The position numbers and the translations under genes are program-made. Below, one piece after another: positions 2,159 through 43,223 of a stretch of 50,986 nucleotides of DNA. The notes beneath the pieces were generated by a model, which saw only the letters and a program-made list of their open reading frames with translations, ran no database searches and was not told the DNA's origin. The stretch's first letter is position 1, and each line of letters starts with the position of its first letter. This stretch comes from Patescibacteria group bacterium (GTDB lineage: Bacteria; Patescibacteriota; Patescibacteriia; Patescibacteriales; UBA12075): contig JAYENK010000014.1 of assembly GCA_034722035.1 (NCBI GenBank), positions 1 through 50,986 on the forward strand. Direction: 5' to 3'.

Positions 2159-2328
2159 AATAACCGGTAACCATCTATTTCTGTCCTTGCTCTTTTTTCT
2201 CCGGCTATATTTGGAATATCGATACTGTTGTATATGTTTATGATTTTATACTATAATGATATTATAGATTAACAACGTAAAAAATAATAACATTAAAATT
2301 AACAATAGTCAAACTGAAGTTTAAATAT

Positions 2329-2544
2329 ATGGAAGATATTATTCAAGACATTTCAAAGCTGATTAAGAAAAAAATGCAAGAGCAGGGAGTTTATGATCGA
2401 GAAGGCTACCGCAATCTGGTTAACGAAAGTATGGATTATTTTGTTAGCAAAGGCAAGCTAATCGATGACGACAATCTGGAGTTTATTGAGGATCGCTTAC
2501 TCGAACTTTATTCTCAGTTTAGCGAAGAACTAAGCGAGGACTAG
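2329..2544 (+). CDS. Hypothetical small acidic protein
   Basis: 71-aa ATG ORF with coding-like composition that fills the gap between divergent genes. No family recognised. Confidence 0.45.
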   Translation: MEDIIQDISKLIKKKMQEQGVYDREGYRNLVNESMDYFVSKGKLIDDDNLEFIEDRLLELYSQFSEELSED

Positions 2545-2546
2545 GG

Positions 2547-4337
2547 CTACACTTTTATTACAACCGGCAATACCATCGGTCGTCTTTTGGTTTTAATAAA
2601 TAAAAATTTGCCAATTTCATTACGAATTTTATTTTTGATATGATCTGTATCAGCTGACGTGCGTGAATCGTAATCTTTCACGATTTTTTTTATTTTTTTA
2701 CGCGTGTCCTCAATTAAAGCTCGGTTTTCTTTCATATAAACAAAACCGCGAGAAATAATATCCGGGTTTCCAATCGGTTCCCCAGTCTTGGAGTCAATTG
2801 TAGTAATTGCCACAATCATTCCGTCTTCTGCCATAACGCGCCTGTCTCGTAAAACAATATTACTTACATCTCCAACCCCAAGTCCGTCTACCATTACATA
2901 GTCGGACAAAACTTTTTCTTTACTCAATTTTCCAACTAAATTATTGCCTTGCTTGGAAAATTCCAGCACTTGACCATTATCCGGCACAAAAATATTTTCC
3001 TCCGGAATTCCAACCTGTATCGCTAAATCCGCGTGCGCTTGCAACATATAATGACTACCCTCAATTGGCACAAAGAATTTTGGTTTGAGCAAGCGCATCA
3101 TCAGCTTAAGATCTTCTTGCTTGGCATGACCACCGGCATGAACATCCATCATTTTGTAATGGACTATTCGCGCTCCTTGTCGTACCACCATATCTTTAAG
3201 TGCTTGAATACTGCGTTCATTGCCGGGAATAACCGAAGAAGAAAAAATTACCGTGTCGCCCTTTTTAAGCTGGATTGTTTTGTGTTCTCGGCTCACCACT
3301 CTTCTGAGAAAAGCATTGCTCTCACCTTGAGCGCCGGTACCAAGAATCATTACTTTATTGTCGGGTAATCGCTTTAAGTCGGCATCACGAATCAAAAGAT
3401 TTGGGCTAAATTTTAAATAGCCGATTTTATGAGCAATTTCAACGTTGTTATTCATACTCCGTCCTTGTAGATATATTTTACGGTTATGTTTTTTGGCTAT
3501 ATCAAAGATTTTTTGAATACGGCTAAGCTGACTGGCAAAAGTACCGATAATAATTCGACCTTGCAGATTTTCAAAAATGCGGTCAATTTCGTCGCCAATG
3601 GTCGACTCGGATAATTGATAACCGGGACTGTTTGAGTCAGTCGAATCAGACATCATTAATTCAACCCCGCGACTGCCCAAAAGAGCAATTCGATTTAAAT
3701 CGGCCGGTTTGTCATTTACCGGCGAATAATCAATTTTAAAATCGCCGGTATGAACAATTGTACCGATTGGAGTTTTAACAATAACCGCAAAAGAATCTGG
3801 AATAGAATGGTTTACTCGTAAAAATTCCACTTGTAAGCTACGACCAATTTTAACTCTTTTGGTGTCGTTAATTTCAGCAATATTCAACTGGGGACATTTT
3901 TGATATTCTTCACAGCGCTTACGAATAAGGCCAGCGGTTAATTTTCCGGTATAAAGCGGTGGATTGCCGATTTTACCCATAATATGCGGGATTGCTCCAA
4001 TATGGTCCATGTGTCCATGCGTAATAACCACGCCTTTAACCCAATCGATTTTATTCTCCAAATAGTTTATATTGGGAATAATATAATCAATCCCGGGCAT
4101 ATCTTCTTCCGGAAATTGTAAACCCATATCAATTATCATAATTTCTTTGTCGTATTCGATCAAAGTCATGTTGCGTCCGACTTCTTCTAATCCGCCTAAA
4201 ACAATTACCCGTAATTTCCCTTCTTGGAATACGGTTTTTGTCTTCGTTGGTTTTTTGTATGTTTGTGTGCTTCGATTTTCAGGTGCCTGCTTAGCAGCCC
4301 CCCCGAATCGAGCTTTTGGTTTATAAGTTCTAATCAT
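2547..4337 (-). CDS. rnj: Ribonuclease J (metallo-beta-lactamase / beta-CASP RNase) with a basic N-terminal extension
   Basis: 596 aa. It has the THGHMDHIGAIPH metallo-beta-lactamase motif, the overall RNase J pattern (LGGLEEVGRNM ... GDFKID ... HxSGH-like HAGGHAKQEDL) and the C-terminal domain. Confidence 0.9.
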   Translation of the reverse strand: MIRTYKPKARFGGAAKQAPENRSTQTYKKPTKTKTVFQEGKLRVIVLGGLEEVGRNMTLIEYDKEIMIIDMGLQFPEEDMPGIDYIIPNINYLENKIDWVKGVVITHGHMDHIGAIPHIMGKIGNPPLYTGKLTAGLIRKRCEEYQKCPQLNIAEINDTKRVKIGRSLQVEFLRVNHSIPDSFAVIVKTPIGTIVHTGDFKIDYSPVNDKPADLNRIALLGSRGVELMMSDSTDSNSPGYQLSESTIGDEIDRIFENLQGRIIIGTFASQLSRIQKIFDIAKKHNRKIYLQGRSMNNNVEIAHKIGYLKFSPNLLIRDADLKRLPDNKVMILGTGAQGESNAFLRRVVSREHKTIQLKKGDTVIFSSSVIPGNERSIQALKDMVVRQGARIVHYKMMDVHAGGHAKQEDLKLMMRLLKPKFFVPIEGSHYMLQAHADLAIQVGIPEENIFVPDNGQVLEFSKQGNNLVGKLSKEKVLSDYVMVDGLGVGDVSNIVLRDRRVMAEDGMIVAITTIDSKTGEPIGNPDIISRGFVYMKENRALIEDTRKKIKKIVKDYDSRTSADTDHIKNKIRNEIGKFLFIKTKRRPMVLPVVIKV

Positions 4338-4521: not shown

Positions 4522-6465
4522 TTAATCCCAGACGAGTTTTTTGCCGGTTTTTAGATACCAATCATTGATATTGGAGAAGCGGTCTTTGGGGGTAAAGATA
4601 TTTTTTACTTGAAAGCCTTTTAAATTATTACTTTGAATATAAGTATAAATTGGCGAGTACATAAATATTGCCGGCGTCTCTTCGGCGATTATTTCTTGAA
4701 AGCGAAAATATTTTTTTTGTCTTTCTCCTTGGTCGAAAATTAAGCGAGCATCTTCTAATAATTTATCAGCTTCCTTATTGACAAAATTAGCAATATTGAA
4801 GCCGTTTTCACCAGTTTGAGATGAATGCCAAAAAGCATAAGGGTCCGGGTCCGCTCCCATCACCTGGCCATAGAACAAAGCGTCAAATTCCCTGGTTTTT
4901 ATCACTTCATTGTTGATGCGTGTAATCGGAACTATATCAATAACTGTTTTTACTCCCAGCTCTTCCCAAAACCCTTTAATTGCTCCCAGGATAAGTTCAT
5001 TTTCATTGCGTTCAACTGTTTTTATTTCTATCACCAAAAAATTATTATCTTTTTTACGCCATTGCCCTTCCCCCATCGCCAGGGTTTCTTTCGCTTCTTT
5101 TTTTGTTTCTTCATCACTTGACTCAAGCTCAGCTTCGGCCGTAGCGATGTTAGCCGAATTAATCTCAACTAATTTCCAGTCAACCGAATCTAGTAATTCT
5201 TCGGCTTTTGTTCTGTTAAAATTATATTTTTCCGTATTCGTGTTAAAGGCAAAATTATTGGCCAAAATCGGTCCATTTGCAATGTAAGCGTTGCTGCCAA
5301 GAACATTGTTGATAATTTCACCCCGGTTTAAGCCAAAAATTAAAGCTTGGCGCACTGCTTTGTCAGCCAAAGCCGGATTGCGTTCTTGATTGAAAAAAAT
5401 TAAAGTTAACTGTGGTAGATATAGTTCATTATAATGATAAGCCTTTGGCGTCAAAATTTGCTCTTTAAGGTCCTGTGGTAAATAGCTAATACCATTAATG
5501 CTGTTTGCATTCAAGGCAGCAATAGCCTCGATAAAGTCTACAAAAAAAACAAAGCTGATATCTACTTTTGGTACTTGCCCATAATAATCGGGATTGCGTG
5601 CCAAATTATATTCTTGAATAATGCCATTTTTATTTTTGCTAAAAGAATCAAATTTATAAGGACCGGAGCCGATTGGCATAATATTCAGTTCGGCCAGAAA
5701 GGCGGATTCGCTGGGCACTTGTGCCCATAAATCAGCCGGTAATATGCCGAATGTTAATATTTCCAAAAAAGCGACATAAGGTTCAGATAAAATTAATTTA
5801 AAGCTATAGTCGTCCAGACGAACTGTATCTACTCCGACTAAGCTGGGACGAAGCAAGGATTTATATTGTTGATCCTGGATTGCCGCAATTGTAAATAAAA
5901 TATCATCAACATTCAGCTTTGCCCCATCGTGCCAATAAACATTATCACGAATATAAAAAGTGTATTCTTTATTATCTTCTGATATGCTATAATTTTCGAG
6001 CAAATCCTTTTTAAGTTCGCCATTCTTGCCCCGCTTGAATAGCGACGAATAAACCAAAGCGGCAATATCATTGTCCACATCGTTAATGCTTGCATAAAGC
6101 GGATTAATGTGCTTAGGAGAACCAATCAATCCTTCGGTATATACTCCGCCCGAAATCGGTACAATTTGTAAATTGTTAAAATAAAAAGAAACAGAAAGAT
6201 AGAAAACGCTCAGAAAAATCAAAAGTACAGCTCCGTAAACAATCCACTTTTCTGTCAAGCTCAAATATTTATTGATATATTTGAATTGACGCCAAGTTGG
6301 TATACGTGATTTTGACAAAGAATAAATCAATTTTTTGTCATAATCGGCTTGTGTTTCAGATAGATTTTTAAAATGCAAAAAAAGTTTTAATTTAACTAAA
6401 AAAGTTTGTTTCTTATTTTTTAAGAAATTAATTATTTTTTTGGACAGATAGGTAATTGAAGCCAC
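4522..6465 (-). CDS. ABC transporter substrate-binding protein, family 5 (peptide/nickel type), membrane-anchored. GTG start in the track.
   Basis: 647 aa with an N-terminal TM segment. Family-5 SBP-like blocks are present (YTFYIRDNVYWHDG, GSGPYKF, ALFYGQ..GADPDPYAFWHSSQ). No permease or ATPase genes are adjacent. Confidence 0.75.
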   Translation of the reverse strand: MASITYLSKKIINFLKNKKQTFLVKLKLFLHFKNLSETQADYDKKLIYSLSKSRIPTWRQFKYINKYLSLTEKWIVYGAVLLIFLSVFYLSVSFYFNNLQIVPISGGVYTEGLIGSPKHINPLYASINDVDNDIAALVYSSLFKRGKNGELKKDLLENYSISEDNKEYTFYIRDNVYWHDGAKLNVDDILFTIAAIQDQQYKSLLRPSLVGVDTVRLDDYSFKLILSEPYVAFLEILTFGILPADLWAQVPSESAFLAELNIMPIGSGPYKFDSFSKNKNGIIQEYNLARNPDYYGQVPKVDISFVFFVDFIEAIAALNANSINGISYLPQDLKEQILTPKAYHYNELYLPQLTLIFFNQERNPALADKAVRQALIFGLNRGEIINNVLGSNAYIANGPILANNFAFNTNTEKYNFNRTKAEELLDSVDWKLVEINSANIATAEAELESSDEETKKEAKETLAMGEGQWRKKDNNFLVIEIKTVERNENELILGAIKGFWEELGVKTVIDIVPITRINNEVIKTREFDALFYGQVMGADPDPYAFWHSSQTGENGFNIANFVNKEADKLLEDARLIFDQGERQKKYFRFQEIIAEETPAIFMYSPIYTYIQSNNLKGFQVKNIFTPKDRFSNINDWYLKTGKKLVWD

Positions 6466-6483
6466 AATTCAGGCTTTAAATTA

Positions 6484-6696
6484 TTATATAATCACAATCG
6501 CTAATGAAATTACAAAAAAGCAAACAGATAAAACGATTGTTGTGTAAAAAAGTTTTTTTTCAAGACCGCGTTTGCTTGCATATACATTACCGCCGCCGCC
6601 AAATAAACCAGACACACCTGCGCCCCGATTCTGCATCAAAATTACCACAATCAAAGCAATCGCAATCGCAATTTGCAATAAATTAAAAATATCCAT
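6484..6696 (-). CDS. secG: Preprotein translocase subunit SecG
   Basis: 70 aa with two TM segments and the characteristic LMQ.RGAG.SG.FGGGG loop. Confidence 0.8.
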   Translation of the reverse strand: MDIFNLLQIAIAIALIVVILMQNRGAGVSGLFGGGGNVYASKRGLEKKLFYTTIVLSVCFFVISLAIVII

Positions 6697-20660: not shown

Positions 20661-21497
20661 TGAACATTAACAATTAAATATAGTTTTATTCATAAAACAT
20701 CTGACGAGCGTTTTATGGATAAAATCTTTTCAAGATTAATAAGTGAAAAGAGCATCAACAAAATTTCGTCGATAATTTATTATCGAACTTTTGCGTTTTT
20801 AGAATCTATTTGATTTCAAAAACGTGGGAAAATCTCGTAAGAGTATATGGTGGATGCCTTGACACAAGAAGACGATGAAGGACGTAGCAGCCTGCGATAA
20901 GCCTTGGTGAGGTGGCAAGCAACCTTTGAACCAGGGATTTCCGAATGGGGAAACCCGCCTAGTTGAAGACTGGGCTCCCGCTAAGTGAATATATAGCTTA
21001 GTGAGGGGACAACCCGGCGAATTGAAACATCTTAGTAGCCGGAGGAAAAGAAAAAAAATATTTATTCCGTAAGTAGCGGCGAGCGAAAGCGGATCAGCCT
21101 AAACCGTTTAAACTGCGCTTGGTTTTATCTTCGGGTAAAACCTTGCAAAAGGCTCCAGAGCCATATGTTTTTTTGGTGTTGTAAGATTATTGCATTCTCT
21201 TTCTGGATTAAGAGAGGTAAGGTTTACGAATTATTACTTCCCTAGTTGAAGCGAGCTGGAAAGCTCCGCCAGAGAAGGTGAAAGCCCTGTAAGGCGAAAG
21301 GGGTAATTACTTTACTGCAATAATTCTTGAGTACCGCGGAACCCGTGAAATTCCGTGGGAATCCGGGACGACTATGTCCCAAGGCTAAATACTTCTTGTG
21401 ATCGATAGCGAACTAGTACCGTGAGGGAAAGGTGAAAAGCATCCCGGTAAGGGAGGTGAAATAGTACCTGAAACCATATACTTACAAGGAATCAGAG

Positions 21498-21609
21498 CTT
21501 CGCTGCCGCTTCGCTAACAATTGACAATTAACAATTAACAATTGACAATTAACTATTCAGTTAAAAGTCAATTGTCAAAAGTCAAGTGTTCACGAAGCGA
21601 CAGCGTAGT
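21498..21609 (+). repeat. Insertion/expansion hairpin in 23S domain I (helix 25 position), with an AT-rich heptad core
   Basis: It lies between the conserved GAAACCATATACTTACAAGGAATCAGAGC and GTGATGGTGTGCCTATTGAAGAATGAGCC. The GC-rich base CGCTGCCGCTTCG/CGAAGCGACAGCG carries the arm TAACAAT TGACAAT TAACAAT TAACAAT TGACAAT TAACTAT and its complement. E. coli has about 12 nt at this position (from memory). Confidence 0.75.
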
Positions 21610-22774
21610 GATGGTGTGCCTATTGAAGAATGAGCCAACGAGTTAGTTCTATGTGGCCTAGCTAAGCCCCGCTTGGGGTGGAGCTGTAGTGAAAGCGAGG
21701 GTTAATAGCCCGATTAAGTCGCATGGACTAGACCCGAAGCCGAGTGATCTAGCCATGGCCAGGTTGAAACCCCAAGAAGTTGGGGTGGAGGACCGCACCC
21801 ACTGATCGTGCAATATCAGGGGATGAGCTGTGGCTAGCGGAGAAATTCTAATCGAACTCGGCAATAGCTGGTTCTCCTCGAAATAGCTTTAGGGCTAGCG
21901 TTGGATGCTGACTACTGGGGGTAGAGCACTGAATGAGATAAGGATCCATACGGATACCTTTCTTAACCAAACTCCGAATACCAGTAGGTGTAGTCCGGCA
22001 GTTAGACTATGGGGGCTAAGCTCCATCAGTCGAAAGGGAAACAGCCCAGACCGCCGTCTAAGGTCCCTAAATATATGCTAAGTGTGAAAGGTGGTGTCGC
22101 GACTGCGACAACTAGGAGGTTGGCTTAGAAGCAGCCATCCTTTAAAGAAAGCGTAATAGCTCACTAGTCAAGTTACCGCGCGCCGAAAATGTATCGGGGC
22201 TAAGCATATTACCGAAGACGCGGGCTCTCTAGTTTACTAGAGAGCGGTAGAGGAGCGTTCTTATTGCGTTGAAGCTGAGTCGTGAGGCTTGGTGGAGCGA
22301 TGAGAAGTGAGAATGTTGGCATGAGTAGCAAAAAGGCGGGTGAGAACCCCGCCCACCGCAAGCCTCAGGGTTCCTGGGCAACGTAAATCGACCCAGGGTT
22401 AGTCGGTCCTAAGACGAGGTCCGTGTAGTGCGGGCGTAGCCGATGGAAGAGCTGGTTAATATTCCAGCACTACTTATAGTTTCCGATGGGGGGACGTAAA
22501 ATAAAAACTGGAGCGGGTATTGGTTTGCCCGTTGCTGGTCAAGACTCGAGTCCAGGTAAATCCGGATTCGCAAGAGTCAAGATTGGCAGAAGATGAAGCT
22601 TTTGTGGATTCAATTTCGGAGGATATTTTATCGAGAAAAACCTCTAGGGCTAAGCTATAAGCAACCGTACCGCAAACCGACACAGGTAGGCGAGGCGAGT
22701 AGCCTCAGGTGTACGAGAGAACCCTCGTTAAGGAACTAGGCAAAATAGCGGCCGTAATTTCGAGATAAGGCCTG

Positions 22775-22887
22775 CCCGGGTTCAACATTTAACCATTAAC
22801 TTTTAACAGTTAACTTATAATTATAAATTATTTAATTTATAAATAGTTAATAGTTAATTTTGTTAATTGTTAAATGTTGAATCTGGG
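22775..22887 (+). repeat. AT-rich hairpin replacing or extending the variable helix in 23S domain IV (helix 63 position)
   Basis: It lies between the conserved GGCAAAATAGCGGCCGTAATTTCGAGATAAGGCCTGC and CGACTGTTTATCAAAAACACAG. The base CCCGGGTTCAACATTT/AAATGTTGAATCTGGG carries arms made of NTTAACN heptads. Confidence 0.7.
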
Positions 22888-23005
22888 CCGCAGCTAAAGA
22901 CGCCCCAACGACTGTTTATCAAAAACACAGTTCCCTGCTAACTCGAAAGAGGATGTATAGGGGGTGACGCCTGGCCAGTGTCCGAACGTTAAGGGGATGG
23001 GTTAG

Positions 23006-23145
23006 TGCTTCGCTTACGCTCAGCAACTTTTAACAGTTGACAATTAACAGTTAACAAATTAAGGAATTATTTAATAAATTTATTTCTTAATTATGTTAAT
23101 AGTTAAAAGTTAATTGTTAATTGTTTGCGGAGCGTAAGCGGAGCA
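23006..23145 (+). repeat. 140-nt hairpin insertion in 23S domain IV (the position of the short GCGCAAGCGAAGC hairpin of E. coli)
   Basis: The base TGCTTCGCTTACGCTCAGC/GCGGAGCGTAAGCGGAGCA carries arms TTAACAG TTGACAA TTAACAG TTAACAA and their complement. The flanks GGGATGGGTTAG and GAAGCCTTGAACTGAAGCGCGGATGAACGCCGGCGATAACTATAA are conserved 23S sequence. Confidence 0.75.
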
Positions 23146-23788
23146 TGAAGCCTTGAACTGAAGCGCGGATGAACGCCGGCGATAACTATAATCGTCCTAA
23201 GGTAGCGAAATTCCTTGTCGGCTAATTACCGACCTGCACGAATGGCGTAACGATTGGGGCACTGTCTCAACGAGGGACTCGGCGAAATTGCAAGACGAGT
23301 AAAGATGCTCGTTAACCGTAGTCGGACGAAAAGACCCCGTGAAGCTTTACTACAGCTTGACATTGGCTTATGACTATATTTGTTCAGTATAGGTGGGAGA
23401 TCTTCGGATCGCCAGTGAGATACCACCCTTGTATATTTGTAATTCTAACCCTAGGCCTTGAATCAGGTCGGGGGACAGTGTTTGGCGGGTAGTTTGTCTG
23501 GGGCGGATGCCTCCCAAAGAGTAACGGAGGCGTTTACAAAGGTTGGCTATCCCGGAATGGAAACCCGGGAGATAGTGCAAGGGCACAAGCCAGCTTTACT
23601 GCAAGACCTACAAGTCGAGCAGTCACGAAAGTGGAACCTAGTGATCCGACCGTCCAATATAGGATGGCGGAAGCTCATCGGATAAAAGCTACTCCGGGGA
23701 TAACAGGCTAGTCGCGCCCAAGCGTCCACAGCGACGGCGCGGTTCGGCACCTCGATGTCGGCTCGTCTCATCCTGGGGGTGAAGAAGC

Positions 23789-23819
<31 letters not shown>

Positions 23820-23845
23820 AGGCACGCGAGCTGGGTTCAGACCGT

Positions 23846-24581
23846 CAAGAAATTGAAAATTTTCGATTTTTTGACCATCTGAACCCTTAAAGACAAAAAT
23901 ACGGCGGCCTTCACGAGTAATCGTGATTGAAAGAAGCTGACTCATATCGATGAAGTCCTAACTTGAATAATAACCTGTCATGTGTTAGGATAATATCGAG
24001 GGAAGTCGCTTATGCAAAATAAAAAATCAAACATCCAAGCAGCATATTTAGCCGGTTTTTTAGATGGAGACGGCAGTATATATGTAAGAGCAAAATCAGA
24101 TTCTACTTATAAGTATGGATTCCAAATTGCTCCATATATTGTTTTCTTTCAGTCTAAAAAAGAAGAAGATAATTTTAGAAAAATTTTTTCTAATATTAAT
24201 TATGGTTATATGCGAACACGCAAAGATGGAATACTTGAGTATACGATTGGACGAAAAAAGGATATTATTTCTTTGATTAATTTAATAAAACCTTATTTAA
24301 TATTAAAAATAAGGCAAGCAGATTTAATTATAGAAATATTAAATAAGAAAGAGAAAGTTAAAAATATTAAAGACTTTCAGAAACTATTAGATTTAGTTGA
24401 TAAATTTAGAGAATTAAATTATTCCAAGAAGCGTAAAAAGCATAAGTTGACCCTTTAGAGACTGATCCCATATTTGGGAGAGGATGGCGTGTAATATGCG
24501 CTATCAAAACGTTAGCCCCCTATATAGATTTTTATAGGGTGAAGGTATAGTCCATGCATTTGGTAACAAGTGATTAACATG
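23846..24581 (+). mobile_element. Group I intron in 23S rRNA at the I-CreI-type site (E. coli ~2593), carrying a homing endonuclease ORF
   Basis: The conserved exon sequence GCTGGGTTCAGACCGT stops at 23845 and resumes as CGTAAGACAGGTCGGTCTCTATC at 24582. Joined, these give ACCGTCGTAAGACAGGTCGG, equivalent to E. coli AACGTCGTGAGACAGTTCGG. The 5' exon ends in T and the intron ends in G, as in group I introns. The 736 nt between them contain the LAGLIDADG ORF. Confidence 0.85.
24012..24458 (+). CDS. Single-motif LAGLIDADG homing endonuclease (I-CreI-like), intron-encoded
   Basis: 148 aa. AAYLAGFLDGDGSIYVRAK aligns with I-CreI LLYLAGFVDGDGSIIAQIK. Size and downstream blocks (KPYLILKIRQADL vs QPFLKLKQKQANL) also match. 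Confidence 0.9.
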   Translation: MQNKKSNIQAAYLAGFLDGDGSIYVRAKSDSTYKYGFQIAPYIVFFQSKKEEDNFRKIFSNINYGYMRTRKDGILEYTIGRKKDIISLINLIKPYLILKIRQADLIIEILNKKEKVKNIKDFQKLLDLVDKFRELNYSKKRKKHKLTL

Positions 24582-24882
24582 CGTAAGACAGGTCGGTCTC
24601 TATCCACTACGGTCGTGGAAACTTGAGGAGGCCCTTTCCTAGTACGAGAGGACCGGAAAGGACGAAGCTCTAGTGTACCGGCTGTCCCACCAGGGGCATT
24701 GCCGGGTAGCTACCTTCGGTTTGGATAAGCGCTGAAAGCATATAAGCGCGAAGCCGTCTCCAAGATAAGGTTTCGTTATGAGGTCCGCGGGAGACTACCG
24801 CGTTGATAGGCTCTACGTGTAAGCACAGTAATGTGTTGAGCGGAGGAGTACTAATCGACCCATGATTTTCCCACATTTTTGA

Positions 24883-24934
24883 TGTTATCACCCTTCGGGT
24901 GAGCCCTTCTACAAATAGGGCACATGCGAATGAG
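24883..24934 (+). repeat. Dispersed repeat copy U1 (23S-5S spacer)
   Basis: TGTTATCACCCTTCGGGTGAGCCCTTCTACAAATAGGGCACATGCGAATGAG is related to the copies at 25009, 40587 and 41067 (those three in the opposite orientation). Confidence 0.75.
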
Positions 24935-25008
24935 TGATAAATATAGTTATTACTATATTTAAATAGATTAGTGTTACTTTTTACTTTATCAAGATTAGAT
25001 ATACTTTT

Positions 25009-25058
25009 GGTATTCGCATGTCTCGTATTCGTAGTGCGGGTCAGCGAAGTTGATAACA
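25009..25058 (-). repeat. Dispersed repeat copy U2, inverted relative to U1
   Basis: The reverse complement TGTTATCAACTTCGCTGACCCGCACTACGAATACGAGACATGCGAATACC aligns with U1 over its full length. U1 and U2 bracket an 74-nt AT-rich segment. Confidence 0.75.
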
Positions 25059-25072
25059 TAAAAACTCCACAA

Positions 25073-25188
25073 TTCTGGTGGTTTTAGCGGAGGGGGTACA
25101 CCTGTTCCCATCTTGAACACAGTAGTTAAGCCCTCCAGCGCTGATGATACTTGGGTTTTAACCCTGGAAAAGTAAGTCACCGCCAGAA
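25073..25188 (+). rRNA. rrf: 5S rRNA
   Basis: TTCTGGTGGTTTTAGCGGAGGGGGTACACCTGTTCCCATCTTGAACACAGTAGTTAAGCCCTCCAGCGCTGATGATACTTGGG...CCGCCAGAA shows helix I pairing and the conserved CCCATC..GAAC.C.G.AGTTAAGC block. An extra 12-bp extension AAAACTCCACAA/TTGTGGAGTTTT flanks it and ends in a T-run. Confidence 0.9.
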
Positions 25189-31040: not shown

Positions 31041-31151
31041 AACCTTGTTTCTTAAAAAAGTAATTAATTTATACTTATATTATAAAAGCTTTAAAGATTT
31101 TTTGCAAATTTTTAATAATTTAAGCACTACTATAGTGGCACTTATTTGCGG

Positions 31152-31225
<74 letters not shown>

Positions 31226-31275: not shown

Positions 31276-32337
31276 TTATCTTTTAATCTCGAGCTTTTTC
31301 CTTAAGTAACAAACACTTGACCAGTCAACTAGTTTGTCGTGTGCTAATCTCCCGGCAACAATACCAGGGTCGACATCAAGCTTTTTGGCAAATGTTTTTA
31401 TTTGAATATTTTTAAAATCATTTTGGCTTACAAAGTTTTTATATTCATTATAATCAATTAATGTATTGGAGGCGAATTTATCAGCCTCTTTTTCTTTTTT
31501 AGAAGAACGTTTGATTTTTTCATTAAAGTCTATAAATTGATCAGTTTTGCCATGTAATAGAATATGTCCTACTTCATGCAGAAATGTAAACCAGAAGATA
31601 TCGCTGTACTTATATCTAATAGTTAGCTGAATAACGGGATTATCGCCGACCCATCTAACAGCTCCATTTACATAGGTATTTTTGAGATATGGAGTGAATA
31701 ATACCTTGACTCCGCATTCAGCACATATTTTTCGAATTTGCTCAGAAAAATTATTTGGGAGATGAGTTAGTTTTTTTAGCTCATCAATTTTTTTCTTTAA
31801 TTTATTTTTGTCGAATTTGTTCACTTCTTGTTTTTTAGCCTCAATTTCACCGAATCTTAACCATGCCGCTAATGATTCTTTGGATATTTTATCAGTATTA
31901 GTCTTTTTAAAAGCAATTGCCTCTGTTTTTAAAACAAAACTCAAAGAGTCAACTGCAAAAAAATTAAGCAGATTGTCTACTTTTTCTTTGTTGTCTATAG
32001 TTTTTTTGACTGCACCAGTTTTTGATAGCTCCAAGTATGGATATTCTTTCATTATAATAATTTCTTTCTTCAATTGTTCTTCTTGCTTCAATCTAGCTTT
32101 ATTTTCTTGATATTGATTTTCCAAGTTAATCCAGAAGTCAGCATTTCCGCCTAAAACTCTTTCCAGTTTTAAGGCGGTATCTAATGTAATAACAGTTTTT
32201 CCATTCATAATATGGCTGATATGTTTTTCCGAGATACCAGTTCTTTGAGATAAGTCTATTTGGGACATGCTCGCTCTTTCAATTGTTAGCGCCAATGTTT
32301 TTCCTGGATGAAGCGCAATGCTTGGTTTATAGCTCAT
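31276..32337 (-). CDS. higA: HigA-type HTH antitoxin fused to an ImmA/IrrE-family zinc metallopeptidase domain
   Basis: The N-terminus HPGKTLALTIERASMSQIDLSQRTGISEKHISHIMNGKTVITLDTALKLERVLGGNADFWINLENQY is a HigA/VapI-like XRE HTH. The C-terminal half carries FLHEVGHILLH (the HExxH of COG2856 ImmA/IrrE). Confidence 0.75.
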   Translation of the reverse strand: MSYKPSIALHPGKTLALTIERASMSQIDLSQRTGISEKHISHIMNGKTVITLDTALKLERVLGGNADFWINLENQYQENKARLKQEEQLKKEIIIMKEYPYLELSKTGAVKKTIDNKEKVDNLLNFFAVDSLSFVLKTEAIAFKKTNTDKISKESLAAWLRFGEIEAKKQEVNKFDKNKLKKKIDELKKLTHLPNNFSEQIRKICAECGVKVLFTPYLKNTYVNGAVRWVGDNPVIQLTIRYKYSDIFWFTFLHEVGHILLHGKTDQFIDFNEKIKRSSKKEKEADKFASNTLIDYNEYKNFVSQNDFKNIQIKTFAKKLDVDPGIVAGRLAHDKLVDWSSVCYLRKKLEIKR

Positions 32338-32348
32338 ATATTTAAAAA

Positions 32349-32663
32349 TTAATGATAGTCACAATTTAAATCAATAATCACTATTGATTTTATTGTTGAG
32401 TAATCATTTATATTGTATTTTCCTTTTGGTTCGAATATTAATCTATAGGGATGTTTTGTATCTACCGCAAATTTGCCATTATGTTTTCCTTTTAAGGGAT
32501 GAGGCTTTATTGCAGTAGGGATATCAGCAAGACACGTGGAAGCGTTTAAATATGTTAAAGACAGGATTATAAGTTCTCCACAGTTTTTTCCAAATTTCTG
32601 ATATAGCTTTTTATGATTATCAGCTAACTTTTGCAATTTTTTATTTTTATAAACTATCTCCAT
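32349..32663 (-). CDS. higB: HigB-like toxin (plasmid maintenance killer / RelE superfamily)
   Basis: 104 aa. It reads ..KNKKLQKL......L.KFG...........L.......D.......HPLKG...G.FAV......RLIFEP, the pattern of HigB killer proteins. It lies upstream of higA, the toxin-first order typical of higBA. Confidence 0.65.
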   Translation of the reverse strand: MEIVYKNKKLQKLADNHKKLYQKFGKNCGELIILSLTYLNASTCLADIPTAIKPHPLKGKHNGKFAVDTKHPYRLIFEPKGKYNINDYSTIKSIVIIDLNCDYH

Positions 32664-32752: not shown

Positions 32753-32878
32753 GAGTCGAATTTTTATTAATACTATTTCTTATTTAAACTTTATCAATTT
32801 TTAATGTATAAATCAAATTTTTTTATTATTTTATCACGTTACTATCCAACACACTCTCAACAGGATTAATTGCAGACA

Positions 32879-33025
32879 ATGATGGCAATGATTGGAGCAT
32901 TCATAGGACTTTTGACAACGGGCTGGATAGCCGGAAATATTTCAGTTAGCATGGCTTGGTTAACAGGCGCAATAGTGATAATAGTGTCACTGCCGTTATT
33001 ATTTCTCCTGAAAAATGGGGAATAA
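32879..33025 (+). CDS. Possible 48-aa hydrophobic peptide (weak call)
   Basis: The ATG ORF MMAMIGAFIGLLTTGWIAGNISVSMAWLTGAIVIIVSLPLLFLLKNGE has two TM-like segments. It lies in a 520-bp gap that is otherwise non-coding. Confidence 0.3.
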   Translation: MMAMIGAFIGLLTTGWIAGNISVSMAWLTGAIVIIVSLPLLFLLKNGE

Positions 33026-33119
33026 AACAAAAACCCATTTACTTAAAAAAGTAAAGGAGTTTTTTCTATTCCGGATTTTTTCAAGACGCATGTATAACGG
33101 TAGATTTTATTATTTTTCC

Positions 33120-33148
33120 TAGACACACAGGGGGGGGGCTGTTATAAT
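33120..33148 (+). promoter_or_regulatory. Promoter of the 613-aa surface protein gene with a G9 homopolymer in the spacer
   Basis: TAGACA (33120-33125), a 17-nt spacer CACAGGGGGGGGGCTGT containing G9 (33130-33138), TG at 33140-33141, and TATAAT (33143-33148). The ATG is at 33185. Confidence 0.5.
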
Positions 33149-33184
33149 AAAATTAAATATTATTAATATTATAATTTATAAATT

Positions 33185-35026
33185 ATGAATGGAATAAAAA
33201 AAATTGTTGACTTGAGATACTCTTCTCAAGTAATTATAACTTCTATTGTCGCTATTTTAATGGTTGCGGGTATAACTGGCGCAACAACAATCGGCACAAA
33301 CATTTCAACTGACGGCAGTTTGACCGTTACAGGCACAACTACTATTGATAGTGGTCTTTTTTATGTTGATGTTACTAATGATAAGGTTGGAATAGGTTTA
33401 ACAAATCCAGATTCACAGCTTCATGTATATGATGCAAATGGTGGAATGATTGAGGTTTCAGATGGTGGTTCAGTTAGGGTAAAAATTAGTGCTACCTCAA
33501 CAGGTGGATACATTGGAACTAGTAATAATAATTCTTTTGGGATTAGAACAAATAATATTGATCAGATTTTTATTTTGGATACAACAGGAGGAAGTAATGC
33601 AAAGGTTGGGATTGGAACTACTACTCCCACAGCTAAGTTAACTATTCAAGGTGCCTCAGGTCAATCAATATTAAACATAGCATCCTCGTCTGGGTCTTCA
33701 ATTTTAAGTATCAATCAAAATGGCTATGTGGGAATAAACAGTCCATCGCCAATTTATCAGTTCCATGTTAATGGAGGGAATTATAATGCTATAGTTGGAT
33801 CAACTGATGGTGTAGGTTATTCGGGTGTAGTTGGATATGGTAACGATGGTCCAGGTGTTCATGGGCAGAGTGGTGGTTCAAGTGGAACTGGTGTTTCGGG
33901 TCAAGGACAAACGGGAGTGCATGGAGTTGGACCGAATGATGACTCTATCGGGGTCAGAGGAGTCAGCCATGGAGTAAATGGGATTGGTGGTAAATTTGAG
34001 GCTTCTTCTGGTTATGCCTTGATTACCACTGATGGTAATGTTGGAATTGGAACGGCTACTCCTCAATACATACTAGACGTTAATGGAGATGTGAATATTG
34101 CCAGTGGTAGCACATATAAAATAAATGGACAGACAGTTCTTTCAGCATCTTCGCAATTAGGTAATGTATATTTAGGAAGAAATGTTGGGGTGTCAAATAC
34201 CACTGGTTCGGAAAATGTTTTTATTGGCAATGATTCAGGGGAGTTAAATACAACAGGGTATAGAAATACATATTTAGGATCAGAGGCAGGTGATGCTAAT
34301 ACTACTGGCAGAGATAATGTTTTTGTTGGCAGTGCTTCAGCTAAGTCAAATGATATAGGTTATCAGAATGTTTTTGTTGGGAAATCATCAGGTGAATTAA
34401 GTGGGTCGTCTAATAATAATATATTTTTGGGTTATATGGCTGGATATAATGAAACAAGTTCAAATAGACTGTATATTACAAATTCAAACACTTCAGCAAC
34501 TTCAACGTTAATTTACGGTGAATTTGATAACAATATTTTATCCTTTAATGCGAATGTTGGGATTGGCACGACATCACCTCAAACCGATTTGCATGTTTTT
34601 GATGATCAGGCAAATGCTCAAATAACGATTGAAGGCTATAATCCAATGTTGAGATTTACCGATACCTTAGCAAGTGTTGGAGATAAAAATTGGGCCCTGT
34701 ATGGCTATAGAGATACATTCAGAGGAGTATTGAACTCGGATGATTGGTCTGGTGGAGATACTACCTGGCTAGAAGTAGTTAGAAATGGTGAATCTGATGT
34801 GACAAGCGTCAATTTTCCGAATGGAAATGTTGGAATAGGCACTACAACACCAGATGCTAATTTGCAGGTTTACGGTGGTGATAGCGCTACAAGCACATTG
34901 GAGGTTGGCGGAAGTTTAAGTAGTAGTGGCGCTTGTATAAAATTAAGAGACAGTGATGGCGCTGGCTGGAGTTACTGCACAATTTTAGACGGCACACTTT
35001 CATGCTCACAAGCATCATGCGAATAA
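33185..35026 (+). CDS. Membrane-anchored/secreted surface protein with repeated VGIGT..P...L.V modules (tail-fibre-like repeats) and a Cys-rich C-terminal tip
   Basis: 613 aa with an N-terminal TM segment. Six copies of the motif are present (KVGIGLTNPDSQLHVY, KVGIGTTTPTAKLTIQ, YVGINSPSPIYQFHVN, NVGIGTATPQYILDVN, NVGIGTTSPQTDLHVF, NVGIGTTTPDANLQVY). There is a G/S/T/N-rich repetitive core, and the protein ends GACIKLRDSDGAGWSYCTILDGTLSCSQASCE. Confidence 0.8.
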   Translation: MNGIKKIVDLRYSSQVIITSIVAILMVAGITGATTIGTNISTDGSLTVTGTTTIDSGLFYVDVTNDKVGIGLTNPDSQLHVYDANGGMIEVSDGGSVRVKISATSTGGYIGTSNNNSFGIRTNNIDQIFILDTTGGSNAKVGIGTTTPTAKLTIQGASGQSILNIASSSGSSILSINQNGYVGINSPSPIYQFHVNGGNYNAIVGSTDGVGYSGVVGYGNDGPGVHGQSGGSSGTGVSGQGQTGVHGVGPNDDSIGVRGVSHGVNGIGGKFEASSGYALITTDGNVGIGTATPQYILDVNGDVNIASGSTYKINGQTVLSASSQLGNVYLGRNVGVSNTTGSENVFIGNDSGELNTTGYRNTYLGSEAGDANTTGRDNVFVGSASAKSNDIGYQNVFVGKSSGELSGSSNNNIFLGYMAGYNETSSNRLYITNSNTSATSTLIYGEFDNNILSFNANVGIGTTSPQTDLHVFDDQANAQITIEGYNPMLRFTDTLASVGDKNWALYGYRDTFRGVLNSDDWSGGDTTWLEVVRNGESDVTSVNFPNGNVGIGTTTPDANLQVYGGDSATSTLEVGGSLSSSGACIKLRDSDGAGWSYCTILDGTLSCSQASCE

Positions 35027-35045: not shown

Positions 35046-36827
35046 ATGAAATTATATAAAACTTTTTTTCTATTATTTATATTTATTGCTTTGCCAGTAG
35101 TTGCAGCCACAAACGATTTGATTTTCAGTGAAGATATAACTGTTTCAGGCATCACTCTAGGCTCAGGCACAACTAACATGACTGTGTTTGCCAGTTCCTC
35201 TGCTGAAAGTTTTGATATAGCCAGCGGGGTATTTACGATAACCAATCCTGGGAGTTCGTTTAATGCTGGCTCTGCTAATGCTAGCGTGGGAATTATTATA
35301 ATATTAAAAAGTGGAGCAATGGAGAGTTGCACTGCTAATACTGTACCAGGAACTAGTTCAACAACACTACCAACAGCTAGTGGAGTTTATACAATAAGAC
35401 CGTTAGAGGCTACTAGTTGTAGCGGCTTATGTTCTTCTCTTACAGGTGCGGCAACATATAATGCCTACCCAACTTGCGGAGCGTCGACATGCAGTTCCGG
35501 ATACACCCTCTCAGGATCAGGTTCTAGCGCCACTTGTAGTGTGCAATCATCTGGAGGCGGAGGTGGTGGAAGTTATATTCCTCCATCAACCACAGCTGAT
35601 CAAGATGAAAATATTTCAACTATTCAATCATTTGTGACTTCTTCAGATGGAACTAGTCTTTCAAGCGAGACAAAAACAACTAAATCAGATAGTGGTGTTG
35701 TAGAAAAAGTTGAAATTGAAACAACAATTACCGCCTCAGAGGATGTGGCAGATACTCAGACCGTTAAGCTGGATTCGAGCGAAACCGCAGATGTAAAAGA
35801 AATAAAACTAGAAATGGAAAAAGAGATTATAAAAGAAATCATTGGCACTTCAACAAATAAAGAAATAAAAGTAAATATTATTAGCCAAGAAGCTACAACT
35901 GTTCAAAAAAATATTACCGCAAGGGGTGGTAAATTTTTGCTTGGATATGATATCTTTAGCATTGATATACAGACAGGCAAGAATAAAATAAATAAGTTTG
36001 TAAATCCACTAAAATTAACATTTGATATTAGCAATATTGCTGATAAATCTGATTTGAAAATATATTATTTTGACGAGTTAACTAATAAATGGGAAATAGC
36101 AGGAAATGGCGGAGTGATTGCAGGAGATAATATTATTGTGGAAGTATACCATCTAACTGATTTTAGTTTGATGAAAGACGTGGAAGAAGATATTGAAGTA
36201 GACGTAAATGAATTTATTGATAGAGAGAAGCAAATGCTACAAATTGAAGATGATGCAAATGCTGTGTTTATAAGTGGAATTGATTTGAATACAATACTTA
36301 TTCATAATAATGTAGAAAAAGATACAGAAATGCAATCAAAGGGTATGAATAAATATATTCCAGAGTTAAAAGAAAATATTTCAGGACTTACTATGAATAA
36401 TATTTATGCCATAAATAATTTTATTATGTATGGATCTATTACAACCGAAAAGCTGGGAGCGGGCGAGAGAGCGGGGGTTGTTAATTCTTATAAAAAAGCA
36501 TTTGGCAAATTGCCACTTACCAAAGAAGAGTGGAAAGATTGCATAGCTATTGGAAATGGCCGCTGGCCTAGAGAAACTAGCACAACAGCTGAAGCAACAG
36601 CAAGCGAAGAATTTAAGAAAATATATTTGCGCGATGCAAACATGGATAATCCGAATGACAACGCCGCAGTAACAATAATTTCATATGGACTTCGTCCATC
36701 TGACAGAAATACAGAATCAGAAAGAGCAGGTATTAATATTTTTAAGGGAATATATAAATATAATCCTACGTTAGCATTAGATTGGGATATTGTGAGGGCG
36801 ATTAGTTATTCAGGGGCGACTAGGTAG
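35046..36827 (+). CDS. Secreted hypothetical protein (signal peptide, Cys-rich segment, poly-Gly linker, acidic region, conserved-looking C-terminal domain)
   Basis: 593 aa. The signal peptide is MKLYKTFFLLFIFIALPVVAA. A CSGLCSS..CGASTCSSGY..CS segment precedes GGGGGG. It lies 20 nt after the upstream gene on the same strand. Confidence 0.75.
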   Translation: MKLYKTFFLLFIFIALPVVAATNDLIFSEDITVSGITLGSGTTNMTVFASSSAESFDIASGVFTITNPGSSFNAGSANASVGIIIILKSGAMESCTANTVPGTSSTTLPTASGVYTIRPLEATSCSGLCSSLTGAATYNAYPTCGASTCSSGYTLSGSGSSATCSVQSSGGGGGGSYIPPSTTADQDENISTIQSFVTSSDGTSLSSETKTTKSDSGVVEKVEIETTITASEDVADTQTVKLDSSETADVKEIKLEMEKEIIKEIIGTSTNKEIKVNIISQEATTVQKNITARGGKFLLGYDIFSIDIQTGKNKINKFVNPLKLTFDISNIADKSDLKIYYFDELTNKWEIAGNGGVIAGDNIIVEVYHLTDFSLMKDVEEDIEVDVNEFIDREKQMLQIEDDANAVFISGIDLNTILIHNNVEKDTEMQSKGMNKYIPELKENISGLTMNNIYAINNFIMYGSITTEKLGAGERAGVVNSYKKAFGKLPLTKEEWKDCIAIGNGRWPRETSTTAEATASEEFKKIYLRDANMDNPNDNAAVTIISYGLRPSDRNTESERAGINIFKGIYKYNPTLALDWDIVRAISYSGATR

Positions 36828-36857
36828 AATTTATTTTTGAGAAATTTTTTTATATTG

Positions 36858-36930
36858 TGCTCCCAGATGGAATTGAACCATCGACCCCCACGTTATAAGC
36901 GTGGTGCTCTAACCCCTGAGCTATGGGAGC
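36858..36930 (-). tRNA. tRNA with anticodon TAT (tRNA-Ile, AUA-reading)
   Basis: The reverse complement GCTCCCATAGCTCAGGGGTTAGAGCACCACGCTTATAACGTGGGGGTCGATGGTTCAATTCCATCTGGGAGCA gives a clean cloverleaf. The anticodon stem is CCACG/CGTGG and the loop is CTTATAA, so the anticodon is UAU. Confidence 0.85.
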
Positions 36931-40664: not shown

Positions 40665-40725
40665 TAATATTGCAAAAAATTTTACTCTTTTTGTGACAAT
40701 AAAGTAATATAATTAATTTTAATAT

Positions 40726-40805
40726 ATTATAATATAATATAGATAATTATAATATAATATAGATAATTATAATATAATATAGATAATTATAATATAATAT
40801 GATTA
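40726..40805. repeat. Tandem repeat, 20-nt unit AGATAATTATAATATAATAT x3 plus partial copies
   Basis: Identical units lie at 40741-40760, 40761-40780 and 40781-40800, flanked by partial copies. Each unit contains TATAAT. Confidence 0.85.
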
Positions 40806-40862
40806 ATAATAATAGTGTATTATAGTATTTAGTTAAATATAGAGAATTGTGGATAACAAAGC

Positions 40863-40892
40863 TTGACAATAGACGACAAAATAGTTTATAAT
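40863..40892 (+). promoter_or_regulatory. Candidate promoter of the HTH-FN3-giant protein operon
   Basis: TTGACA (40863-40868), 18 nt, TATAAT (40887-40892), with a second TATAAT at 40893-40898. It is followed by ATCCCCATG, as at the promoter of the 48381 gene. Confidence 0.45.
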
Positions 40893-41297: not shown

Positions 41298-43223
41298 ATG
41301 TTGAATATAAATAAATTAAAAATTAAATTTATAATATGGCTACTGCTTGTAGTAATGTTTGTGCCGATAAATTTGAGCTGGGCGGCGATGCGTAGCAATT
41401 CTTATATTATTTATGAAAATATTCATCATAGCTTTGATGGGCCGGTAATCAGCGATGTGAGTGCGAGTGTAAGTGAGCAGAGCGCGACTGTTACTTGGAA
41501 TACGGATATTATTGCTGACGCTTATGTAATTTATTCGACTGAGGCGAGTTTTGCTACCAGCTATGAACAAGGTTCGAGCGTGAAAAGTGCAATTGCGCAT
41601 AGTGTTATTGTGAGTGGGCTTGATCCGAGTCAGACATATTATTATCGTGTACGCAGTGAACGGATTAATGGTGGTGTTACGACCGATACGACCGAGCGTA
41701 CTTTTATGACCGAAGCGGAAGCTGTAAGCCCGGAAACTCCGAGTAGTGGCGGTGGGGGAATATTGATTATTGACAAGACTGACAAAATTCCGCCGGAGAT
41801 AAGCAACATAAATATTAGTGATATTGGCGCTCAGACGATTAGCGTGGAATGGGAGACGAATGAAGAGGCAACTAGCTTTGTTGAGTATGGTGAGGGGGAT
41901 GCTTATGGCAATGTTTATGGTGAATGGGGGACTTCGACTGAACATAGTGTGAATCTAGAAAGATTAAAGCCGGCAACCGCTTATAGCTTTCGGGTATTAT
42001 CGAGTGATAGCTGGGGTAATATTGCTTATTCGGATAAGCAAAGTTTTGTTACTTTGACGGCTAGCGGTGAAGAAGTAATTCCGGAAGATGAGCCGGAAGA
42101 AGAAGATGAGCTGGTACTACCGGCGGAAGGACTGGCAGAATTAACACAGAACGTGATTGATTTTCTTTTGCGTCTGTTTCCGGATTTGAATCTGGAAGAT
42201 TTAGTAAATATTAATAATATTAATGAACTGTCAGACTATATGGATACGCCAAATGTAATTGGTGAACCAATAATAGATGTAAGCGCGGATGAAGTGACAA
42301 TAAGCTGGCAAACTGATATTGAATCTAACTCTATGGTCGCGATCGCACCGAATAGCGCTTATAACACCGAGGAAGATGACCCTTATCAGCAAGTGATTGG
42401 TAATTCGAATGAGTATGTGACTAATCATGAATTAACATTATATGGTTTAATACCGGACACAAGCTATCATTTGCAGATTCGAAGTGCCGCTCCTTTGGGG
42501 CCGGGCGCAGAGTCGTCTGATTATACTTTTCGTACCAGCCAGGAAGAGTTGCAGATACTTAGTTATTTGACACAGATTGTGGATAATGAAACGGCTTCTT
42601 TCAAATGGACTACGAACAAGGAAGCAGACTCTTCTGTCACGTTTACGCCGTATTTTGAAGGAGTGCTTGGCTTGGATCAACAAAAAACAATCAAGAATAA
42701 TAATGTTTCCGTGGTACATGAAATATTGATCGATGAATTTGTGGGTGGAACATTCTATGAGGTGGAAATACTTAGTACCGATAATCGGGGCAATGAAGCG
42801 CGCAAAATAATTACACAATTTTCTACTACTGAAAATGATTTAGCTCCGATAATTTCACATGTCAAAGCCGACTCGACTGTATTTGTGGATCGGAGCGATC
42901 AGATTCAGACAATTATATCTTGGTTGACTAATGAGCCGGCTACTTCCCAGGTGTATTATCAAGAGGGAGTTCATAGCGCGACCACTAAATTGACAGAATC
43001 AACCAGCCATAACACCAATTATACCCGCGAACATATGGTGGTGGTATCTAAGTTTAAGCCCGGCTTGGTTTATAGCTTCCGGGTTGAAAGTGTGGACTCT
43101 GGTGGAAATACTGTTATATCTAAACTGCATACATTTATGACTGCCAAGAAAAAAGAATCTATCATTACTGTAATTATGAATATTTTAGAAAACACTTTTG
43201 GATGGATGAAAAAATTAATGTAA
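41298..43223 (+). CDS. Secreted protein with five fibronectin type III-like (purple-acid-phosphatase-N-like) repeats
   Basis: 641 aa with a signal peptide. Five ~95-aa repeats each have ..A.V.W.T.E.A.S.V.Y......Y..........H.V.L.GL.P.T.Y.YRV.S.D..GN......F.T (e.g. SATVTWNTD..YYYRVRS, ISVEWETNE..YSFRVLSSDSWGN, VTISWQTDI..YHLQIRS, ASFKWTTNK..YEVEILSTDNRGN, IISWLTNEP..YSFRVESVDSGGN). Confidence 0.8.
   Translation: MLNINKLKIKFIIWLLLVVMFVPINLSWAAMRSNSYIIYENIHHSFDGPVISDVSASVSEQSATVTWNTDIIADAYVIYSTEASFATSYEQGSSVKSAIAHSVIVSGLDPSQTYYYRVRSERINGGVTTDTTERTFMTEAEAVSPETPSSGGGGILIIDKTDKIPPEISNINISDIGAQTISVEWETNEEATSFVEYGEGDAYGNVYGEWGTSTEHSVNLERLKPATAYSFRVLSSDSWGNIAYSDKQSFVTLTASGEEVIPEDEPEEEDELVLPAEGLAELTQNVIDFLLRLFPDLNLEDLVNINNINELSDYMDTPNVIGEPIIDVSADEVTISWQTDIESNSMVAIAPNSAYNTEEDDPYQQVIGNSNEYVTNHELTLYGLIPDTSYHLQIRSAAPLGPGAESSDYTFRTSQEELQILSYLTQIVDNETASFKWTTNKEADSSVTFTPYFEGVLGLDQQKTIKNNNVSVVHEILIDEFVGGTFYEVEILSTDNRGNEARKIITQFSTTENDLAPIISHVKADSTVFVDRSDQIQTIISWLTNEPATSQVYYQEGVHSATTKLTESTSHNTNYTREHMVVVSKFKPGLVYSFRVESVDSGGNTVISKLHTFMTAKKKESIITVIMNILENTFGWMKKLM

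Follow-up and report, generated by a model that had tools for sequence, protein, structure and literature searches.

The window (the whole stretch of DNA that was analysed; 50,986 nt, 36.8% G+C) contains a pair of adjacent genes on the plus strand that resembles an operon. The upstream gene (33185-35026) is predicted from motifs, homologs and a PDB match to encode an exported tail-fibre-like protein of 613 amino acids (MAT-like, non-S74), and the downstream gene, which begins after a 19-nt gap (35046-36827), encodes a secreted partner protein of 593 amino acids; the two genes are probably co-transcribed. The region is flanked by tRNA-Val (31150-31225) on one side and by tRNA-Ile (36857-36930) on the other. 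Upstream of the fibre gene lie genes for a HigA-HTH/M78 antitoxin-type protein, a repressor (31276-32337), and a HigB-like toxin (32349-32663), followed by a 51-codon membrane ORF (32870-33025).

The window otherwise reads as ordinary chromosome, with genes for RNase J, L20, IF3, RuvC, glycogen synthases, 23S and 5S rRNA, and tRNAs. The nearest relatives of the RNase J, at 78-82% identity, bear Parcubacteria, Falkowbacteria or Patescibacteria group names, and homologs of the 613-aa and 593-aa proteins bear the same CPR names. On the basis of these relationships, the source organism is assigned to the Patescibacteria, and we assume that it probably lives as an episymbiont on other bacteria. Neither mutS nor mutL was found in the 51-kb window, a result that concerns the window alone and says nothing of the whole genome.

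Two other regions of the window contain tandem repeats. At 20831-25188, the match to the 23S rRNA spans 3,100 nt compared to 2,925 positions in the model; AT-rich heptamer tandem repeats at 21515-21589 and 22784-23125 suggest insertions, a LAGLIDADG endonuclease ORF (24012-24458) is situated between the 23S and 5S genes, and there is no adjacent 16S rRNA gene. At 40726-40814 (within the region 40705-40892), a 20-nt tandem repeat, ATTATAATATAATATAGATA, is present in 4.4 copies with a 95% match, and ~50 nt separate it from a perfect TTGACA-18-TATAAT promoter downstream (40863-40892). That promoter is followed by a small ORF with an excisionase-like HTH and by a gene for a 641-aa FN3/purple-acid-phosphatase-N protein (41298-43223).

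The predicted fibre protein and its partner

The N-terminus of the 613-aa protein forms a hydrophobic helix (residues 8-31 in the model), and the protein carries repeated VGIGTxxP and NxFxGxxAG motifs, which are common to the 887 homologs that were detected. Homologs are annotated as tail-fibre-domain proteins or trimeric autotransporter adhesins, and the protein also matched PHROG tail-fibre families. Using phmmer, residues 272-435 aligned with 8OND (Bd2133, a mosaic adhesive trimer [MAT] fibre of Bdellovibrio) at E = 3.7e-5; the similarity falls in the tip region of Bd2133, which is the sole meaningful solved relative. According to PMC10769870, MAT fibres occur on the surface of the Bdellovibrio predator and recognise prey glycans.

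No Pfam match was identified in the 613-aa protein, and many of its homologs have PF13884, the S74 chaperone domain. The protein would belong to the non-S74 MAT group, as it shares with the NS74 MAT subgroup the lack of an S74 chaperone domain; however, it is shorter than Bd2133 and has a different C-terminal tip, and its role as a fibre is predicted from sequence. AlphaFold gave a mediocre monomer model (pLDDT 62). The top matches of a fold search with this model were all MAT fibres, albeit not significant (E ≥0.02), owing to the use of a monomer model of such low pLDDT. The sequence-only reading had described the gene as encoding a surface protein, and an exported fibre is supported by the hydrophobic helix, the tail-fibre and adhesin homologs, and the PHROG and Bd2133 matches. 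We infer that the product is surface-exposed, and it is a probable host-attachment fibre.

In the 593-aa partner protein, there is a signal peptide, and a G6 linker joins a Cys-rich N-terminal domain to a C-terminal domain of ~200 amino acids. This last domain recurs (~33% query coverage) in many Patescibacteria proteins with PKD, YDG and Big-like architectures, and no Pfam, NCBIfam, PHROG or PDB match to it was found. The gene pair is kept in all orthologous loci of other Patescibacteria. Orthologous operons adjoin transposases (rve in locus L006 and IS110 in locus L014) as well as a type I restriction-modification methylase with a Bro-N protein; given these neighbours, the fibre operon seems to be located in variable or mobile regions.

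A G9 tract in the probable promoter of the fibre gene

Upstream of the 613-aa gene, the plus strand contains a -35 element, TAGACA (33120-33125; 5/6 match to TTGACA), a 17-nt spacer, CACA-G9-CTGT (CACAGGGGGGGGGCTGT; 33126-33142), and a -10 element, TATAAT (33143-33148), with an extended -10 TG at -15/-14 (33140-33141). The -35 element, the -10 element and the TG were identified by direct reading and by a consensus promoter scan, and the spacer by direct reading. The G9 homopolymer, which is the proposed slipped-strand tract, occupies 33130-33138 and is the sole G/C run of ≥8 in the 50,986 nt; in the homopolymer count, the next longest is a C7 at 4298, and several G6 runs follow, among them those at 16649, 17066, 22488, 43503 and 44202. 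All of the elements that the sequence-only reading had placed here were confirmed, and no G/C homopolymer in the window is longer than the G run, as it had claimed.

The promoter scan scored this site 11/12 plus TG, the top plus-strand site in the interval that extends from the upstream genes to the ATG at 33185. It is also the sole scan site downstream of a hairpin followed by a U-run (33029-33066, plus strand; inverted repeat I8), and its position is kept in orthologs; these results uphold the earlier choice of this site as the best promoter for the gene. The hairpin, which comes after the 51-codon membrane ORF, folds at -10.2 kcal/mol (z = -3.6) and is a probable intrinsic terminator. It is absent from the output of a consensus terminator scan, which missed it because its stem is poor in G-C pairs. 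The hairpin probably ends upstream transcription and thereby isolates the fibre gene. Taken together, the sequence elements place the G9 tract between the -35 and the -10 of the promoter that would drive the 613-aa gene.

The TATAAT ends 36 nt before the ATG, and the region holding the predicted leader (33149-33184, plus strand) contains neither G nor C and has no Shine-Dalgarno sequence. Transcription from this promoter would be predicted to start ~7 nt beyond 33148, at around 33154-33157. Because a Shine-Dalgarno-like sequence is present at almost none of the 29 gene starts inspected in the window, where the upstream regions are simply A/T-rich, its absence at the 613-aa gene is uninformative. 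The surrounding intergenic DNA had been described as almost pure A/T, which is too strong: outside the tract, 33065-33184 is 21% G+C, and only the 36-nt leader is GC-free.

Other candidate features at the promoter were rejected. A second TATAAT at 33170-33175 lacks an acceptable -35 and is not kept in orthologs, which makes it an unlikely promoter. An invertible promoter was also considered; the flanks gave merely AT-rich, low-complexity matches and no convincing inverted repeats. No Rfam family matched the promoter region as a structured RNA or riboswitch.

We compared the tract with the expectation from base composition. Under a first-order Markov model, the expected number of runs of ≥9 in the window is 0.08 for G and 0.01 for C, and at least two G8 matches occurred in 9 of 100 dinucleotide shuffles of the window (p ~0.09). 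By composition alone, the G9 is only mildly unusual and marginally improbable. The window has nine promoter-like sites scoring ≥11/12, and in a post hoc calculation, a 9-mer would fall wholly inside the spacer of such a site at 0.16% of window positions. What is unusual about the G9 is where it lies in this genome stretch, not the run itself. No other simple sequence repeat (SSR) of the promoter-spacer homopolymer kind was found in the 51-kb window.

Upstream regions of orthologous loci from other Patescibacteria were aligned on the -10 element; seven orthologous loci (L004, L005, L006 with its identical copies L007-L010, L136, L138 and L140) were used. Each has TATAAT as its -10, as does the window. 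The window combines TAGACA with a 17-nt spacer, L004 has TTGACA at 17 nt, L005 has TTGATT at 17 nt, and L006-L010 have TTGACA at 16 nt; a spacer of 18 nt follows TTGTCA in both L136 and L138 and TTGAAG in L140. A -35-like hexamer at 16-18 nt is retained in 7/8 orthologous promoters, L014 apparently being the exception. The sequence TGT-TATAAT is common to L002 (as TATAGT), L136, L138 and L140. Across the orthologs, TATAAT followed by a AAAATTAAATAT-like sequence is kept, even though the partner proteins are just 47-76% identical, which argues that the promoter is conserved in place. Based on this alignment, the G9 promoter of the 613-aa gene is probably real.

The orthologous spacers, at 16-18 nt, are AT-rich and free of G/C runs, and no G/C run of ≥7 was found in these spacers or in ~41 kb of related Patescibacteria loci. 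In the comparison with orthologous promoters, which had been put forward as a check on the tract, the -35-like hexamer, the 16-18-nt spacing and the TATAAT are conserved, and the G tract is present in none of the orthologs. Because the spacers of the orthologs are AT-rich and lack a G/C run, the G9 is a lineage-specific replacement of an ordinary spacer.

In the orthologous locus L014 (1621-3329), no -35 hexamer is recognisable, and a (CT)10 repeat at 3279-3298 lies 25 nt upstream of TATAAT. An IS110-family transposase gene (1621-2796, minus strand) is situated ~480 nt upstream of the CT repeat, and insertion of the element at or beside this repeat may have displaced the -35. The sister assembly of this locus, L003, starts inside the (CT)n repeat (L003 1-16); we considered this contig break as a sign of SSR heterogeneity, and a multi-copy IS110 element upstream is the likelier cause. 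The nearest ortholog, L002 (Logan ERR15087772), encodes a fibre protein that is 67% identical. Its contig (1-14) starts inside the promoter spacer (AAAAATGTTATAGT), 5 nt upstream of its TGTTATAGT; this break was rejected as evidence for a tract, as the spacer remnant resembles the AT-rich spacers of L136 and L138.

Tract length could be compared with one other assembly. A Logan contig (L001; SRR26901930) matches the window with 100% identity across 5,707 nt, including the G9, although it is possibly assembled from the same reads. This assembly is continuous across the tract, which argues that any second allele was too scarce to interrupt the contig. Exact-protein look-ups with the 613-aa protein and with its HigB-like neighbour returned solely this contig. 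A DNA pattern specific to this locus, in which the length of the G gap could vary, gave 0 matches in metagenome contigs, and profile-based searches for the locus in genome contigs and metagenome contigs gave no confirmed relatives. No related strain was found in the databases searched; the 613-aa and 593-aa proteins have no relatives above 76% identity there, and the RNase J has none above 82%. No length polymorphism at the G9 was seen in the two assemblies, which are identical over 5.7 kb and possibly share reads.

Predicted poly-G spacer promoters in other genomes

We scanned GTDB species representatives for T[AT]GACA-N1-7-G8-N1-7-TATAAT and identified at least 124 sites in at least 120 stretches (L016-L135). 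Among the matches listed, the modal run is G9 (57/124), G8 accounts for 23/124, and runs extend up to G16; most come from gut Clostridia, Bacilli and Christensenellales metagenome-assembled genomes (MAGs). Signal-peptide or transmembrane-like N-termini, including lipoprotein-like ones, are predicted for 66% of the ORFs downstream of the matches listed compared to 23% of control ORFs from the same loci, an excess of exported proteins with an odds ratio of 6.3 (p = 3e-16).

Related promoters in this set differ in tract length. In rabbit-gut Bacilli MAGs, TTGACACC is followed by G8, G9 or G10, and related Faecalibacterium promoters have G8 and G10; other related pairs among the matches listed have G11 and G14, or G12 and G13. 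Poly-G spacer promoters before exported proteins are thus recurrent and length-variable in uncultured bacteria, and from its sequence features the set looks like a large, mostly undescribed group of candidate contingency loci. This recurrence elsewhere raises the prior for the tract in the window.

Three CPR genomes are represented among the matches listed, two of Saccharibacteria (L027 and L077) and one of Absconditabacterales (L087). In L027, a Saccharibacteria MAG from sheep ileum, TTGACA-ACGCTC-G14-TATAAT has a 20-nt spacer and is located 42 nt before a 470-aa ORF (promoter 5017-5048, ORF 5091-6503; minus strand, reverse-complement coordinates). The 470-aa protein combines a signal peptide with a sortase-type anchor at its C-terminus, which is composed of SPDTG, a hydrophobic stretch and basic residues. 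The Saccharibacteria MAG L077 has a G9 promoter at 1672-1698, and the Absconditabacterales MAG L087 has one at 2866-2892 (minus strand, reverse-complement coordinates).

The promoters of this set are like that of the window in having a -35, a spacer with G8-G16 and a TATAAT upstream of exported proteins, and they are themselves predictions. They differ in having a perfect TTGACA and a tract that often abuts the -10, whereas the window has TAGACA. Among the matches listed, the -35 is TTGACA at every one of the 124 sites and TAGACA at none of them, which may reflect either biology or the way the scanner expanded the ambiguity code.

Proposed effect of tract length and its meaning

G/C runs of at least eight residues are slippage-prone, which places the G9 among slippage-prone repeats, and 17 nt is the optimal distance between -35 and -10. 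In the mechanism that we propose, a slippage-prone tract would set the -35/-10 distance in the sigma-70-type promoter of the two-gene fibre operon. With nine G residues, the spacer would have its optimal 17 nt, and the assembled allele would be the one with high expression. If a single G were gained or lost at replication, the spacer would measure 18 or 16 nt, with the -35 turned by ~34 degrees relative to the -10; transcription would be reversibly lowered, and larger slips would lower it still further. Because the TG keeps with the -10 on slippage and the orthologs use spacers of 16-18 nt, a change of one G would more probably tune expression than abolish it, and residual transcription is to be expected. 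A graded effect is thus more likely than an absolute one, and the outcome would be a heritable, stochastic "volume control" and not a clean on/off switch, generating cell-to-cell diversity in a probable host-attachment fibre. We infer the start of transcription, the hypermutability of the tract in this organism, its effect on expression and any adaptive value. Several observations count against a switch: both assemblies have G9, the Logan contig continues unbroken across it, its composition makes it only marginally improbable, and it is the single SSR of its kind in the 51-kb window. In addition, the TG and the natural 16-18-nt range of the orthologs suggest that one-nucleotide changes are tolerated, and L014 apparently has no -35, so the promoter may rely mainly on the extended -10.

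The same observations can be read as signs of an incidental tract, a neutral G run that grew by slippage and drift in a tolerant spacer while the extended -10 dominates. The TG at -15/-14 would fit such a promoter, as would the ortholog spacers of 16-18 nt and the degenerate -35 elements (TTGATT, TTGAAG, TTGTCA, and none recognisable in L014). A G9 somewhere in the window is expected in ~9% of shuffles, and such a tract occurs once in the 51-kb window and in no ortholog. However, the hexamers at 16-18 nt in 7/8 orthologous promoters suggest that spacing is constrained, the G9 falls within the 0.16% of available positions noted above, and the assembled length is exactly the optimal 17 nt; in addition, the same architecture is widespread elsewhere and strongly tied to exported proteins among the matches listed. 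On balance, we consider a neutral tract rather unlikely. A further explanation is that the G-rich spacer sets a fixed promoter strength, through its stiffness or melting or as a regulator site, and that its length is irrelevant. Spacer sequence is known to influence the strength of sigma-70 promoters, the composition of the window spacer is sharply unlike that of all the AT-rich ortholog spacers, and a short ACAG/CTGT inverted repeat lies on either side of the tract. Yet a 9-nt homopolymer would be an unstable encoding for a fixed property, a similar motif is not repeated elsewhere in the window, and no poly-G-specific regulator is found nearby, where the upstream genes encode the HigB-like toxin and the HigA/M78 antitoxin-type repressor. 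We regard fixed tuning as improbable.

The tract might be an error of sequencing or assembly, either a two-colour Illumina poly-G or a miscounted homopolymer, both of which are familiar problems; the two assemblies may share reads. Against this, two different assemblers agree on G9 within continuous sequence, and the flanks form a conserved promoter at exactly 17 nt that is collinear with the orthologs on the -10 side. Spurious poly-G is usually long and situated at the ends of reads or contigs, and we judge an artefact very improbable. The G9 promoter is a well-formed candidate contingency locus, and we put at roughly even chances the proposed mechanism, in which slippage would alter the -35/-10 spacing.

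The closest described parallels are in Neisseria meningitidis, in which a poly-G tract in the promoter spacer of porA and a poly-C tract in that of opc mediate phase variation (van der Ende 1995; Sarkari 1994; cited in PMC5084427). Like porA and opc, the window has a G/C homopolymer that separates the -35 from the -10 in a sigma-70 promoter upstream of a predicted surface protein, and tract length sets a spacer with an optimum of 17 nt. Variation and its effect on expression are known for porA and opc, whereas for the window they are predictions. The window promoter also differs in its extended -10 TG and its host, an uncultured Patescibacterium with 37% G+C; its product is tail-fibre-like, whereas those of porA and opc are a porin or an Opa-like adhesin. 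The vlp lipoprotein genes of Mycoplasma hyorhinis contain poly-A between the -35 and the -10, and they are ON at a spacing of 17 nt. Here too, a spacer homopolymer controls surface proteins in an AT-rich, host-dependent bacterium with a reduced genome; however, vlp is a multigene family with poly-A, whereas one G tract was found in the 51-kb window, with no evident paralogous family.

As to the gene product, the parallel with Bdellovibrio extends to lifestyle, as the window bacterium probably lives on other bacteria. In the passages of PMC10769870 that were covered, there was no mention of MAT genes being regulated through SSRs. A full-text literature search found no paper on SSR contingency loci in CPR, Patescibacteria or Saccharibacteria; the nearest CPR report concerns a Gracilibacterium with a coding 9-mer repeat that is hypervariable (PMC6851277).

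We hold it possible, as a tentative reading, that this is a genuine SSR contingency locus in a Patescibacterium, with a hypermutable G tract stochastically tuning a MAT-like host-recognition fibre. The mechanism itself is a textbook one, and the value of the finding would be in the organism and the gene and not in a new principle. Slipped-strand contingency loci are known mainly from host-adapted pathogens, and this reading, if true, would bring the candidate phyla radiation within their range; taken with the Saccharibacteria (G14 and G9) and Absconditabacterales (G9) promoters, it would mean that CPR bacteria use slipped-strand phase variation. To our knowledge, host recognition and host switching by ultrasmall episymbiotic bacteria are largely unknown, with few cultured examples; genetic tools for a tractable Patescibacterium are reported in PMC10633639. 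A heritable, reversible switch on a Bdellovibrio-related fibre would give a testable handle on population-level variation in attachment, and metagenomic reads show tract length directly. If the reading is true, the attachment apparatus would go on varying within a clonal population of the episymbiont.
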